Of a DNA stretch of 64,000 bases, positions 37,901 through 43,900 are shown piece after piece. Made by a program: the position numbers. The stretch lies in assembly GCF_056712565.1 (NCBI RefSeq), contig NZ_CM160072.1; one strand, written 5' to 3'. Numbering within the stretch: position 1 is the first letter of the stretch; each line of letters begins with the position of its first letter.

Positions 37901-40900
37901 CATAGTGAGCTACATCAGATGCGGTCGTACACTTGTTCAGCAACTGGTTCAAAAGCCATTGACTCAGCAAGGGTTGACCGTATAATTCACGCGATTACAG
38001 CACACCGTGGTATCAATGCGCCCTTAGCTCAGTTGGATAGAGCAACGACCTTCTAAGTCGTGGGCCGCAGGTTCGAATCCTGCAGGGCGCGCCATTAAAA
38101 TTCAATCAGTTACGCCTTCTTTATTTCTTCTATAATTCCAGAGTGGGACATTATCACCAAAAATGTCGTCTATTTTCCTCGCGTGCTCAGTCAAATGATT
38201 AGGCGCAAGGTGAGCATATCTACGAACCATTTCTCTGGACTCCCATCCGCCCATTTCCTGAAGCACTGATAATGGGACGCCTGACGGAATCAACCTGCTT
38301 GCCCGGGTATGCCAGAGGTCATGGAAACGGAAATTTTCAACTCCTGCACGACGACAAGCTGATAGCCATGCTGTCTTGCTGTCAATGCGCATCTTCCTGA
38401 GCGCAGGCATTGATGTTCCATCTGCTCGCTTAGCCGCCCTGGTATGTACACCCACATTTGTGATGCTTGCCTGTTTGATCATGCAGCACTTTAGAGGCGG
38501 TATCGTTCAGCGCCACACCAATGGCGCGATTTGATTTGCTATCTTCTGGATTCACCCTGGCAACTTGTCGCTGCATGTCAATCTGTTGCCACTCCAGATT
38601 TATGATGTTCGACTTTCTCAGAACAGTTACCAGCGCAAACTTGACGACAGATTTCAGTGGCTTGGGGCTCTCATCAATCAGGCGTTTTTCCTGATTCTTT
38701 TGTAAGTCTCTTGTGCCATTCCACCTCATACAGGTTTGCCTGCAAACAGTACTGATATTGCACCGCCAGATATTCCGGCTGGCTTCGTGGTTGTTTTCAA
38801 CAGTGATGAGGCATCGTGGCATCTCGTTGAAGACCATCGGGGTAAAACGGTTTATGACGTGGCATCAGGGGACGCGTTATTTATTTCTGAGCTCGGTCCG
38901 TTACCGGAAAATGTTACCTGGTTATCCCCGGCAGGGGAGTTTCAGAAGTGGAACGGCACATCATGGATAAAGGATACGGAGGAAGAAACCTCGTTGCTGG
39001 AAGCCTGTAAGATGTATCGGGTGTTGCTGAACCGAGTTGATACATCAACTGCCCCTGATATTGAGTGGCCTGTGAACCCTGTCAGAGAGTAATCATTGGG
39101 ATTATGCCGCAGCACGTCGTGCGCAAGAACGTGCTGCGGCTGGATGCTATTTTTTCCCTGAAGCGGAAAACATTACTACAGTACCTTTAACCTTGGTTTT
39201 AACATTCTCGAAATGCTCTGAGAGTATATGTGTTAAGCCTTCTTCGGAATCTTTTGTGTTTGAAAAGATGCCTTTTTGATTGTAAATGCGCATCAGTTTT
39301 TGACCGAAGCTATTGTGCACAACGCCGTCACCAAGAATTGTGGCTCCGTATAGAGTTCCATCGTCAGTTAAGGCCTGCGCCGCATTGCGTATTACACAGC
39401 TTTTTGTAGATATATTTCCAGGCAGGCAGTGAAGAAGGTAAAACATGGAAATGGAATCAAATTGACCATGTAACGCCGCGGGATAAGGATCAAAAACATC
39501 ATGGCTAATTTTATGTTTAATTTTTGATTCCCCAGCCCTTGTCGATGCCGCGTTCAGGCTAGCTTCGTTCAAATCCATTAAAGATATCAGACTACTCTCA
39601 GGTACGTGAGTAAGGTAAAACCCAGTTCCAACACCAATATCCAGATGGTTGTTACCTAAATGTTCCAGAAAGTGTGGAAGAAGGTGTTCCTTTGTAGGAC
39701 ATCCCCATGCAAGCCGATTTGATACACCCAAAACCCACCAGTCATAAAGCTTTAGGGTAAGTGGTGTGTAAATTTTAGCCCCATCATCTGTGTTTTTTTT
39801 CATTAGTTTCACTATGTTATAGTTTTATTTGTGAATTAAATCAATTATAGCGATGAATTACAAGGGGTTAAATGATGCCACGGCATAACGAATTTGAATA
39901 TATTGAGTCTTGTGTTGCGGTAAGAGGTTACACGCCAGGACGCAGGTTAAATGCTTACAAGATTAGGGGATATTGTTTGCTTTTAACGGTAAACAAATTC
40001 CCCGGGGCTATACAATACCACCGGGGAGAAAATCTATTTAACGTTGTTAAAAGGTGTACTTAAGACCAGCAGTAGTGATGAAGTTATAGTTTTCTATGCC
40101 TGCACCATTTTTGCTGTAGTCAGAAGTGTTATCATTGTGATCATAAAGTGAAGTATTACCTTTTTTATTCGTAACCCGATTCCATGCGCCTTCAACATAA
40201 ACTTTTGCGTTAGGTGTTACGTAATAACCTGCATTGACTGCAACAGAATAGTAATTTTGGTCTTTGACTTTACTGCGATAAGTGATTCTTTTTCCTGGGT
40301 CATAGTGCTCATCGTTATCAGATGCTTCCACCCAGCCGCTGTATTTAAATGTGCCACCTAGCTCAAAATCTTCATAACGATAACTTCCAGTCAAGCCAAT
40401 GTAGGGAATTTTAAAACGTTGTTTGTAGCCGATTGCTCTTTCTCCATTCGGGAAGGAGCCGATATCATCTCTGAATCCCTCCTCAGAACTGTAGATATAG
40501 GAACCACCTCTGGCTGTAAAGCTATAACGGCTTTCCTGATATCCGGCCATGAGTCCCAGGCGGTAATTGGGTTCGTTGAGGAGCCAGCCTTTGATATTCA
40601 GATCAAATTCGTTGGCATAATTGAGTTGTGTATCAGGGTGTCTACTTTCATCCGTCCAGGTTCCGGGGTTACTGGAATCCATCCAGTCCTGATCGACCAT
40701 ATTGCCACCTCGGCTGCCGAGTGTTGTCCAGCCAGCAGCCCCGATAGATATCTGGGGCATCAAATCCCAATTAATTGCACCTTTAATAATTGCAGCGTTA
40801 TTGAATTTCCAGTCAAGTTGACTGACTTTTCGGCCTCCTTCTTCGGCTAGATAAACACGCTCTTTTGTTTTTCCGCTCAGAGTTCCAAGACTAATGTCCG

Positions 40901-43900
40901 CATTTATGTTGTCAGGAGTAAACGATAAAGTCTCGGTAGAAGCAAAAGAGCTGATCGCAATAGGGGGTGTCAGGACTATTCCCAGAAGTTTCGCCCGCAT
41001 AAAAGGTCTCCATTCAATCGTTTTAATGATTGAGTATGTATTTTTTTATCTAACTTAATGAGTCAATTGTATATTGCCCCACTGTTTATATTTTGTTTAA
41101 CATTGGATTTTTGTCACAATGCGCTGTCAGTTTTTTAGTTTAATTGTCTGTTTGTGTTTTGTATTGTGGTTTTATGGGCTAATTATTTTTTTTCTTTGTG
41201 GAGTTTTTATCTATTCAAGTGCCATGCCTTTAGATGCATATTAGCGATAATAGCATGAGGTTTATCCTCAATTGCTGTGTTTTTTAGTATAAAAAAGAGG
41301 AACAAAACTGAGACACATAAGGCCTCGCAATGGCTTGCAAGGTTTTACATATTTTGAGGTGGTGGAACGTGTGAACGCAGAGATGGCGCGGTAATTTGTT
41401 GATTTAAAATGTCGTTCCTGGAGTTTCTAAGTCGTGGCTACAGGTTCGAATCCTGCAGGGCGAGCCATTTCCTCGCCATTTATTTGTTCCCTTTTACAAA
41501 TTACACCATCACTTTGTTGTCGCGGTTTTGCTAAATAATTGGAACACGTCAGACGAATAAAATGAAAACAGAAATTCTGCTAAACAATTCATCTTGCCAG
41601 GATTTTGATTAGGAAAGTGAAAAGGAAAGGAGCAAACTAAGTTGCTCCCTTTAATCATTAATACTCAAGGATACTCTGCGCGACGGGCAAATAGCGCAGA
41701 GAGAAATAGAGCGTGTCTTTACCGCAAGAGGAACGTTTCGCTAACAGCGAGGCGATCTCTGCATCCGGTTTCGGTTTCGCTGTAAACGTTTTACCTTTAC
41801 CAGCGACAAACAGTTCATAAACAATGCCGCTTGCTGGGGCGGAACTTTGGCAATCGGCGCTGGCCTGTAGATAACGTTCACGCTGTTCAGCGGTCAGTTT
41901 ATCCACGCCGCTGCCATCCTGTACCCAGACATTAACACCGGTTGCTTTAACTTGTTCCAGCAGTTGGCGATAGCCATCTGGCGACATGTTTCCGGCGAAA
42001 AAACTACTGATATAAACCGGTTTTGCTGAAACATCGCTAATCAACCGCTGCGCGTTGTTTAACCATGTTAGCAAAGGCTGACGGGCGGCTTCGCTGCACC
42101 AGTTCAGGTCGTCAATTTCCGCGCTGATGTACCAGCCATCCGGCGTTACGCCAGGCACGGCGCTCCATAATCTGGCTTGCTGGAGATCGGCAGCCAGCAG
42201 GCGATTAAGATAGCTTTCCAGCGCTGCGGACGACTGTTTCTGGTGCATAAAAAATTCCGGATCGGCGTTCAGCCCGACAATCAGCTTCAGGCCAGCCTGT
42301 TGCGCAGCTGCGGCACGCTTAAACAATAACGCGCGCTGTTCTGGCTGGGTGAATGCATCGCCGTAACGGGTCCATTGCAAAACCAGGGTATCGAAGCCTT
42401 GCAAACGTAACTGACTCATCAGCCCCTGCCACTGGGTATCGGTAACCTGACTATCACGGTTTTGTGGTTGCCAGATAATACCTTTCATCGCAAAGGAAAA
42501 AGGGCTGACCAAAAGCAGTGTCAGCAATACGAAAATGAACTTACGCATTTACCAGTGCACTCCAATGGTGAGAAACGCGTTGTTGCGCTCTCCGTTACGT
42601 TGATTAATCGCCTTAAAGGTATGTTGATATTCGACGCCGAGACTGACTTTGTGCGGCCAGGCGTCGTAGTGCGTCTCGCCGGTCCAGATATTCCAGCGGA
42701 CCCCGACACCGCCAAGCTGCGCGCCCTGAGTGCCTTTATCACGATAACCGTTGTCCTGAAGGTGAGCATAAGGCTCAATAGTCTGTCCGTTCGCCACCTT
42801 CTGATGCCAGCTTACGCGATAATCTGCCGTCCACGCCTGAATATCCTGGCGGACATATTGCGCCGCATCGAGGTACAGGTTTTGGGCAAACCAGCCTGAA
42901 CCGTTCGGGTGCCATTCGTCGCTGTATTTGCCGCCATTAAAGAATGAGGCGCTGGCGCGCAGCATGGTATCGGATGCGCCATTTTGCCCGTTCAGCGGCA
43001 ACTGCTGTTCGACGGCGAGGAAAAAGATCTGATCGCGCAGCGGCTTCCAGCGCAGACCGGTGCCGGACATCGGATTTTTCACCGGCATCATCACCCCGTT
43101 TTCTCCGGTATCGGCAAAGACGCGGCTATAAACTGAGAGCAGGTCGCCTTCCAGCAGCATATTGCGTCCGAGGCGGTACTCGGCTTCCAGTTGCCCGTAG
43201 CTACGATAGCTTTTCCCTGGCGCTGCGCCGCCGACATTATTGTTAGCGGTACTCATTGCGCCGGAACGCAAGCCGATAGAAGAATCGAAACTGAACGTCC
43301 AGCGGCGACCGACCTCCTCATGCAGACGGCGGAAATTGAAGCGTTGCTGATTTTGCTCTGGGGTCAGTGGGGTTATCAGCGCCTGATTATCAATGTCATC
43401 AATCACCAGCCGGGCGTAGTGCTGCGTCGCAGGCATGTCATCCAGACGCTGGTTCACGTAGGCCAGTTGTCGGATAAGTGCCGGATCGTCCGGTAGCCCT
43501 TTATGCGCCTGTTCGAGCATTTCCCGCGACTGTGCGATATCACCGCTATCCCACAAGGCGTAACCGAGCGCTGCCTGGGTGTTGCTATTATTCGGTTCCA
43601 GTTCCAGCGCGGCGCGCAAATCACTCACCGCCGCCGGGACATTATGACGTTGGCGATAAATTGTCGCCCGCGCAACGTAAGCGTTGGCAGAAGGCGCAAT
43701 ATTGATTGAGCGCGTGAGATCGTTCAGTGCGAGTTCCGGCTGACCAGGAATGTAACGTTGCGCATGCAGCCACCAGTAGAGGGCATTGTTTCCCAGCCCA
43801 CGTTGTTCTGCCTGCTGAAGCCAGCGATCGCGAGCCGCACCATTTCCTGCCGCCTGGGCGGTATTGGCAGCAGCAAGCAGATCCTCATTGCTCATGTCGT

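Follow-up and report, generated by a model that had tools for sequence, protein, structure and literature searches.

DLP12 is the most prevalent of the K-12-type cryptic prophages of Escherichia coli, being present at its locus in 74% of 638 genomes and ending in a 47-bp argU-like attR (PMC6379469). The context of ompT, the omptin protease gene that DLP12 carries beside that attR, has been treated separately: in Desloges et al. 2019 (PMC6854850), ompT is placed 657 bp from ybcH, beside ybcY and without envY, in CFT073, UTI89, 536, J96, ABU83972 and E2348/69, and this context is tied, after Thomassin 2012 and Brannon 2013, to low expression via an ‘EPEC-like’ (enteropathogenic E. coli-like) distal promoter. 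The same text reports that, in two clinical isolates, the presence of envY between ybcH and ompT went with higher ompT expression. For strain APEC O1, a fusion of the chromosomal ompT promoter to lacZ has been assayed and found insensitive to mutation of fnr, in contrast to the plasmid copy (PMC5481319). Here, a 64,000-nucleotide stretch of contig NZ_CM160072.1 (assembly GCF_056712565.1; hereafter ‘the window’) is examined, and within it the 3.4-kb segment that lies between argU and ybcH. It is very probable that this segment (38051-41469) is the remnant of a lambdoid temperate phage of the DLP12 family, lodged in the 3′ end of argU, which has kept two cargo genes and is now old, fixed and presumably immobile.

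The 4.3 kb around the remnant are 100.0% identical to positions 570310-574610 of NC_008563.1 (E. coli APEC O1), and UTI89, NU14, ATCC 11775 and many further strains are near-identical over the same locus. Core genome lies on both sides, with the all/gcl cluster, purEK, cysS and folD on one flank of the window and ybcH-nfrAB, cusRS-CFBA, pheP and entD on the other.

Attachment sites and live relatives

The single tRNA found in the window by ARAGORN is argU, a tRNA-Arg(TCT) at 38018-38094 on the plus strand (Rfam tRNA, 72.1 bits), whose 3′ part forms the core of attL and which is 100% conserved in four other genomes with this compact arrangement. A six-way alignment, in which attL, attR and attP sequences were drawn from the window, from K-12 and from the phages Turner and ev243, places the attL core at 38051-38096 (plus strand) as a 46-nt identity segment, TTCTAAGTCGTGGGCCGCAGGTTCGAATCCTGCAGGGCGCGCCATT, that is followed by a phage right arm of the ACAATTCAATCAGTTACG type. 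The attR core, a 45-nt pauD-like pseudo-tRNA 3′ end at 41425-41469 (plus strand), has the phage left arm before it and the bacterial right arm after it, and differs from the argU copy by three substitutions and one deletion. A first reading of this DNA, made from the sequence alone (hereafter the sequence-only reading), had pointed to an imperfect repeat of the tRNA 3′ end at this place and had called for its att core to be mapped precisely from the direct repeats; with the two cores now placed at 46 and 45 nt, the presence of the repeat stands, while its length is revised from 43 to 45 nt and its end from 41467 to 41469.

The arms of the two copies identify what they are. In the alignment, attP is composed of a left arm, the 46-nt core and a right arm; the copy in argU is composed of the 5′ part of the tRNA, the core and the phage right arm, and the downstream copy of the phage left arm, the core and host sequence. 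Joined in silico, attL and attR of the window give the attP of Turner and ev243. A single 50-nt stretch of Turner (locus positions 10301-10350), defined by the overlap of its BLAST matches, corresponds to both repeat copies of the window, and phage homology extends from it on either side, into the window sequence that precedes the downstream copy and into that which follows the argU copy. Since the arms of the repeats are thus the two arms of the attP of a live phage, the repeats constitute a true attL/attR pair. The objection that the downstream copy might be a chance match fails on this agreement, and also on frequency: a 34-nt core, with up to three mismatches allowed, occurs exactly twice in the 64 kb, against none expected from 100 shuffles. 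The attR core of K-12 is perfect, whereas that of the window has decayed. A terminator-like hairpin with a run of T is formed at 41459-41477 (plus strand) by the end of the pseudo-tRNA together with the host right arm (GGCGAGCCATTTCCTCGCC ATTTATTTGT), and may be the displaced original terminator of argU.

A search of phage genomes found ybcY, ompT, attP and an IntD-type integrase together in the live phages Turner (PP925837), Kati, ev243 and 2G7b and in the PhiR series; water was the source of Turner and Kati, and E. coli of the infant gut that of ev243 and 2G7b. An omptin, there called SopA, has been described on two infant-gut Lambda phages in a study whose main text names no phage (PMC6969025), and these are probably ev243 and 2G7b. 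The cargo region beside attP is highly modular. The slot between ybcY/tfaX and ompT holds appY in K-12 and an alpha/beta hydrolase gene in Turner, ev243 and strain 165, and is empty in the window; the hydrolase of Turner and ev243, which occupies the slot of appY, has about 494 amino acids. Turner further carries a DNA invertase gene (4354-4944 of that phage) between tfa and ybcY, which ev243 is without.

Deletion map and retained cargo

An alignment to K-12 DLP12, which the sequence-only reading had proposed as a check, shows the segment to be collinear with both ends of that prophage: argU and the 3′ half of intD, then tfaD, ybcY, ompT and the pseudo-tRNA. The integrase pseudogene (38110-38699, minus strand) adjoins attL, reads towards the tRNA, and comprises residues 183-373 of the 387 residues of IntD, with a frameshift near 38456 and with the N-terminal 182 residues gone; RefSeq labels it ‘frameshifted; missing N-terminus’. 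When K-12 IntD was used as the tblastn query, residues 270-373 matched 38455-38144 and residues 183-268 matched 38714-38457 in the other frame, at 81-88% amino-acid identity, and comparison of the translation with IntD shows that the HDLRH motif of box II has become HDLWH, with loss of a conserved arginine. At the nucleotide level the pseudogene is 90.9-91.0% identical to the int genes of K-12 and Turner, with 13 gap columns.

Homology to int stops near 38701 and homology to phage tfa begins at 38717, and the 15 nt of filler between them (38702-38716, with no strand assigned), which BLAST maps and a junction alignment delimit as the deletion junction, match neither neighbour. The loss at this point amounts to about 41 kb relative to phage Turner and to 16 kb relative to K-12 DLP12; against Turner, it begins at about codon 182 of int, ends at about codon 30 of tfa and takes in all of the early and regulatory genes and those for replication, lysis, head and tail. 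What follows is a tail fibre assembly pseudogene (38718-39092, plus strand; RefSeq, BLAST maps and PHROG 105 at E 2.5e-57) that has lost its N-terminus of some 30 codons and, in comparison with K-12 tfaD and Turner tfa, an in-frame internal stretch of 117 nt that K-12 retains; the fragment is otherwise 92.7-93.7% identical to the copies of K-12 and the phages. A sub-threshold match to Rfam IS009, a candidate small RNA family of E. coli, lies in the 3′ part of the same pseudogene, about at the 117-nt deletion (38934-39049, plus strand; 64.6 bits against a gathering score of 117, E 1.5e-13), and covers 116 nt of a 199-position model. A second deletion joint comes after the first 27 nt of tfaX (39872-39898, plus strand), as mapped by BLAST to K-12, Turner and ev243; absent beyond it are the remainder of tfaX and the cargo gene, a stretch of 1.7 kb with appY in K-12 and of 2.0 kb with the alpha/beta hydrolase gene in the phages. 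The gene set of an inducible prophage, with intact genes for integrase and excisionase and those for a repressor, replication, lysis and morphogenesis, is accordingly lacking, in that 3.4 kb are left, int is truncated and frameshifted, and no further phage gene lies between the attachment sites.

Two genes, both annotated by RefSeq, are intact: ybcY (39147-39815, minus strand), which encodes a methyltransferase described further below, and ompT (40047-41000, minus strand), which encodes the outer-membrane protease. OmpT matches NCBIfam NF008222 over its full length with 705.8 bits (cut-off 537), has 4 substitutions in its 317 residues relative to the K-12 counterpart (98.7% amino-acid identity), and has all of the catalytic residues D83, D85, D210 and H212. 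The sequence-only reading had listed a two-frame integrase without its N-terminus directly after the tRNA-Arg gene, a deletion junction near 38700-38740, a truncated tail fibre assembly gene, and intact methyltransferase and ompT genes; each of these elements was recovered at, or within a few bases of, the place that it had given.

The two cargo genes differ from the rest of the segment in how they have changed. Compared with the copies of K-12 and the phages, ompT is 98.3-98.6% identical, with a ratio of nonsynonymous to synonymous rates (dN/dS) of 0.08-0.09, and ybcY is 97.8-98.4% identical (98.4% to the phage copies), with a dN/dS of 0.10-0.16; for ybcY, a value of about 0.1 is also obtained among sampled genomes of the lineage that kept the gene. 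Differences among compact-type genomes amount to 1.4-4.7% in the int pseudogene and to 0.3-0.9% in ybcY and ompT. These substitution patterns argue that ompT and ybcY are under purifying selection, while the pseudogenes and the non-coding DNA drift. Maintenance of the cargo genes during decay of the phage parts is what would be expected if a DLP12-type argU prophage had here been ‘eroded down to its cargo’, a reading that is supported as well by the identity of the att arms with those of live-phage attP and by the collinearity of the int, tfa and tfaX fragments with DLP12.

Distribution, age and origin

Of the 5426 complete genomes of E. coli that were searched, 1120 have the 501-nt region across the int/tfa junction as one contiguous match, 1121 have the ompT-ybcH spacer and 1118 have the whole 4.3 kb. 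Four carriers, chosen because identity in their spacer is low (96.5-98.5%), have the identical gene layout, with folD directly upstream of argU. A reconstructed empty site, in which the argU flank was joined to the host right arm (502 nt), was contiguous in none of the 5426 genomes. One junction, one locus and the lack of empty sites together indicate a single old event that has become fixed in a major lineage of E. coli; the carriers APEC O1, UTI89, NU14, 536, LF82, NRG857c, F11 and ATCC 25922 are, we take it, members of phylogroup B2.

The history that these observations suggest can be outlined as follows. A lambdoid phage of the DLP12 family integrated into the 3′ end of argU by tyrosine-integrase recombination, leaving attL (within a working tRNA gene) and attR (the pseudo-tRNA end) as direct repeats. 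The order in the free phage is tail fibre gene, tfa, ybcY, tfaX, variable cargo, ompT, attP and int, such that integration brings int to lie beside argU and ompT to lie at the far end. Compared with the live phages, the remnant is without three stretches, namely that from inside int to inside tfa, the 117 nt of tfa, and most of tfaX with the cargo slot, while envY, outside the element, was lost by a deletion of its own; ompT and the gene of the YbcY methyltransferase have survived intact under purifying selection as the remainder decays.

Nothing that was found contradicts a prophage remnant, and three points have to be entered on the opposite side of the account, against one or another part of the reading. 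The first concerns the age of the cargo: the synonymous divergence (dS) of ompT and ybcY is 0.05-0.06, below that of the adjacent host gene ybcH (0.128 between APEC O1 and K-12), and it follows that later recombination may have refreshed the two cargo genes. The second concerns the relationship to DLP12, in that the int gene and attP arm of K-12 are 99.3-99.8% identical to those of live phages, and the remnant is 88-91% identical to both. The third concerns immobility, which is deduced from a dead and truncated int, the lack of an excisionase and a mutated attR, and which is thus argued from sequence and from the missing empty sites; on those grounds the element would be unable to move by itself.

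The second of these points bears directly on whether the remnant and K-12 DLP12 stem from one lysogenisation of an early E. coli ancestor, with vertical inheritance and separate decay thereafter. Such a common origin would account for the att site, orientation and cargo order shared with K-12, for a divergence of pseudogene and non-coding DNA (9-12%) that is close to the dS of ybcH, and for the presence of DLP12 at the argU locus in 74% of 638 genomes (PMC6379469). The near-identity of the int gene and ompT upstream arm of K-12 to those of live phages, however, agrees with the K-12 lineage having recently acquired these sequences or had them overwritten; the differing contents of the cargo slot (appY, hydrolase or none) are what would be expected if distinct phage variants had integrated, and phages of the family are still active at the same argU site. 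A single shared lysogenisation is therefore a serious possibility that stops somewhat short of being probable.

The ompT upstream region and the absent regulators

Between ompT and the attR core lie 424 bp with about 36% G+C (41001-41424, minus strand), in agreement with the roughly 420 bp of AT-rich DNA that the sequence-only reading had described; a four-way alignment shows this spacer to comprise the 5′ region of ompT and the phage left arm of attP. APEC O1, K-12 and Turner are almost the same over the roughly 100 nt next to the ompT ATG, their differences are concentrated at about 100-230 nt from the ATG, and similarity returns beyond that block as far as the att core. Taken as a whole, the upstream region is 87.8-88.7% identical to its counterparts in K-12 and the phages, and 98.7-98.9% identical to that of another compact-type genome. 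A scan of the region for consensus promoters gave 4 matches, against 4.4 in shuffled sequence.

The ompT gene would be transcribed from its own phage-derived promoter, as the literature also supports, and the diverged block at -100 to -230 is, from sequence comparison, a candidate cis determinant of the known low expression. That the regulation of ompT might here differ from that in K-12, as the sequence-only reading had supposed, was in fact already on record for an identical context in PMC6854850.

Neither envY nor appY has a homologue detectable by tblastn anywhere in the 64-kb window. The statement that neither gene lies between ompT and ybcH consequently holds, although the accompanying assumption that K-12 may have appY there does not, since in K-12 envY is the only one of the two at that position, outside attR, and appY lies on the other side of ompT, within the prophage. 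A 40-nt stub of the 3′ end of envY does survive (41501-41540, minus strand; nucleotide alignment to K-12 and comparison of translations), reading NYLAKPRQ, a 1-nt frameshift and then KVMV*, where EnvY ends in ...NYLAKQRQKVMW*. Because envY lies outside attR in K-12 and its 3′ stub remains here, the gene was removed from the host flank by a deletion of its own and not in the course of prophage decay. The 117 nt from the stub to ybcH (41541-41657) give no convincing alignment to the envY-ybcH spacer of K-12. In strain 165, envY is diverged and frameshifted. Across the genome set, envY is present in 4171 of 5426 and appY in 837 (15%), and the absence of appY is therefore the norm.

Low or altered expression of ompT might be put down to the absence of EnvY and AppY rather than to changes of the promoter in cis. 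EnvY and AppY are not known to have a demonstrated site at ompT, which counts against such an explanation, and 85% of genomes are without appY whatever the context of their ompT gene. In its favour are the absence of both genes from the window and the correlation, in the two clinical isolates of PMC6854850, of envY between ybcH and ompT with higher ompT expression. The same text and the papers that it cites nevertheless ascribe the difference to the sequence of the distal promoter, and the compact type does have the strongly diverged block about 100-230 nt upstream of ompT, which makes the missing regulators a quite unlikely cause.

Mobility

Immobility, as deduced above, applies to the element acting by itself. 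A further possibility is that the 3.4-kb unit is a mobilisable, satellite-like island, which the Int and Xis proteins of a superinfecting phage of the DLP12 family would excise, with transfer of ompT and ybcY. The attL core is perfect, the attR core retains 42 of 46 positions, and related live phages with an int gene about 91% identical circulate in E. coli. The 4 changes in the attR core nonetheless include a deletion, the phage arms, in which Int, IHF and Xis would have their binding sites, have diverged by about 12%, and the unit carries no packaging or hijacking functions; moreover, the population counts give an empty site in 0 of 5426 genomes and the one locus and one junction in all 1120 carriers. 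Mobilisation of this kind is very improbable.

That the region is ancestral chromosome, with the downstream tRNA-like repeat a chance or unrelated duplication, has as its sole support the fixation of the arrangement in about 1120 genomes without an empty site, and can be given practically no credence, since the integrase, tail fibre assembly and tfaX fragments are present and collinear with DLP12 and with live phages of 45-48 kb, the arms that flank the repeats are those of live-phage attP (with a chance expectation of 0 for the repeats), and the whole block is borne by live phages; the objection, which the sequence-only reading had itself foreseen as a refutation, thus falls.

The YbcY methyltransferase

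The product of ybcY, a gene that is intact in the window and a pseudogene in K-12, is a class I S-adenosylmethionine-dependent methyltransferase by its matches to the Pfam families Methyltransf_12, 23, 25 and 11, the best being Methyltransf_12 (E 6.8e-9), and so has a Rossmann-like methyltransferase domain. PHROG 2132, which it also matches, carries the label ‘unknown function’, no NCBIfam model matches it, and in the PDB juvenile hormone acid methyltransferase and UbiG match it weakly by sequence (E about 1e-3). A fold search with its AlphaFold model (predicted local distance difference test score, pLDDT, 90) leads to generic class I methyltransferases at E about 1e-12, the neighbours being lipid, small-molecule and polyketide methyltransferases with template modelling (TM) scores of about 0.6 and 15-21% identity. 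The top neighbour is a bacterial phosphatidylethanolamine N-methyltransferase, a likeness that, at this TM score and identity, is to be taken as a lead and not as an assignment.

Homologues that share 56-69% identity with it occur widely across Enterobacter, Salmonella, Citrobacter, Klebsiella and Yersinia. Those inspected in Salmonella and Enterobacter are stand-alone chromosomal genes, in non-phage neighbourhoods that are unrelated to each other, and the phage ybcY therefore looks like a captured host gene. Since ybcY travels with ompT in live phages, has a dN/dS of about 0.1 and has a phosphatidylethanolamine N-methyltransferase as its nearest solved fold, it is conceivable, if rather doubtful, that YbcY is a second selected cargo protein with a role in the host, and that a putative envelope-related activity would be relevant to extraintestinal E. 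coli.

Chromosomal setting

Several features of the wider window may be recorded. In the folD-argU spacer (37748-38017), argU follows directly downstream of folD; the fimbrial cluster sfmACDHF-fimZ, which precedes argU in K-12, is missing from the window and from four other genomes with the compact arrangement. The window starts within a gene for a YadA-family autotransporter adhesin (1-541, minus strand). A 330-nt open reading frame (ORF) annotated as ‘hypothetical protein’ lies between purE and lpxH (32784-33113, minus strand), a position at which K-12 presumably has no gene, and a 270-nt hypothetical ORF (61060-61450) lies opposite to, and overlaps, the type I toxin gene hokE. The enterobactin receptor gene fepA (about 62370-64000, minus strand) is a pseudogene with an internal stop in the RefSeq annotation of APEC O1; this stop could be a genuine loss or an error of the 2007 assembly.

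Comparison with known systems

The remnant is the standard, already described arrangement in about a fifth of sequenced E. coli, and is in that sense ordinary. The locus is well annotated and lies in a much-studied genome, and the ompT context and its regulatory consequence are in print (PMC6854850). When the literature was searched for a paper that expressly describes this 3.4-kb segment as a DLP12 relic, only general surveys of DLP12 and the paper on ompT context came up. What the present analysis adds is the exact anatomy of the att sites relative to live attP, a map of the deletions, the stub of envY, counts over the genome set and the contrast in selection between cargo and phage parts; to a specialist these results are unsurprising, and their importance beyond bookkeeping is small. 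They do provide a textbook case of prophage domestication, in which a 45-kb phage has been reduced to two useful cargo genes and live relatives are available for comparison, and they correct a view centred on K-12, in that appY is cargo in a minority of genomes, envY belongs to the host and was lost separately, and the ompT promoter would be phage-derived. Studies of OmpT in uropathogenic or avian pathogenic strains may take the block at -100 to -230 as a candidate cis element of the known low expression; ybcY, an unstudied gene that is conserved alongside ompT, is flagged as well, and is the only thread of some open interest.

Among described systems, the ‘EPEC-like’ or ‘CFT073-type’ ompT context of Desloges et al. 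2019 is identical to the arrangement in the window, where the distance from ompT to ybcH is also 657 bp (41658 - 41000 - 1). That paper, in its available part, covers only gene order and expression, and has nothing on att sites, pseudogenes of int and tfa, a stub of envY or population frequency. The plasmid omptins (ompP, arlC and the ompT of pAPEC-O1-ColBM) are likewise horizontally acquired, and APEC O1 has both a plasmid and a chromosomal copy; they differ in residing on another replicon, without a phage att context, and the promoter of the plasmid ompT is dependent on FNR whereas the chromosomal one is not (PMC5481319).

K-12 DLP12, which extends for 21.3 kb from argU to pauD, shares with the remnant the argU site, the orientation, an IntD-type int gene beside the tRNA and the order from tfaD and ybcY to ompT beside attR. 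It retains an intact intD, about 16 kb more (with emrE, rusA, quuD, nmpC, the lysis genes and nohD) and appY, in contrast to a remnant of 3.4 kb; there, ybcY has become a pseudogene, the attR core is perfect and envY lies just outside, whereas the remnant has an intact ybcY and neither appY nor envY, and its non-coding parts are 9-12% diverged from DLP12. The live phages Turner, Kati, ev243 and 2G7b (genus Nesevirus) and the PhiR series carry ybcY, ompT (98.6% nucleotide identity), an argU-type attP and int in the same order as the remnant. They differ from it in being complete genomes of 45-48 kb (48.2 kb in Turner), with an alpha/beta-hydrolase gene between tfaX and ompT, and their int genes and attP arms, about 9-12% diverged from the remnant, are 99.3-99.8% identical to those of K-12 DLP12.

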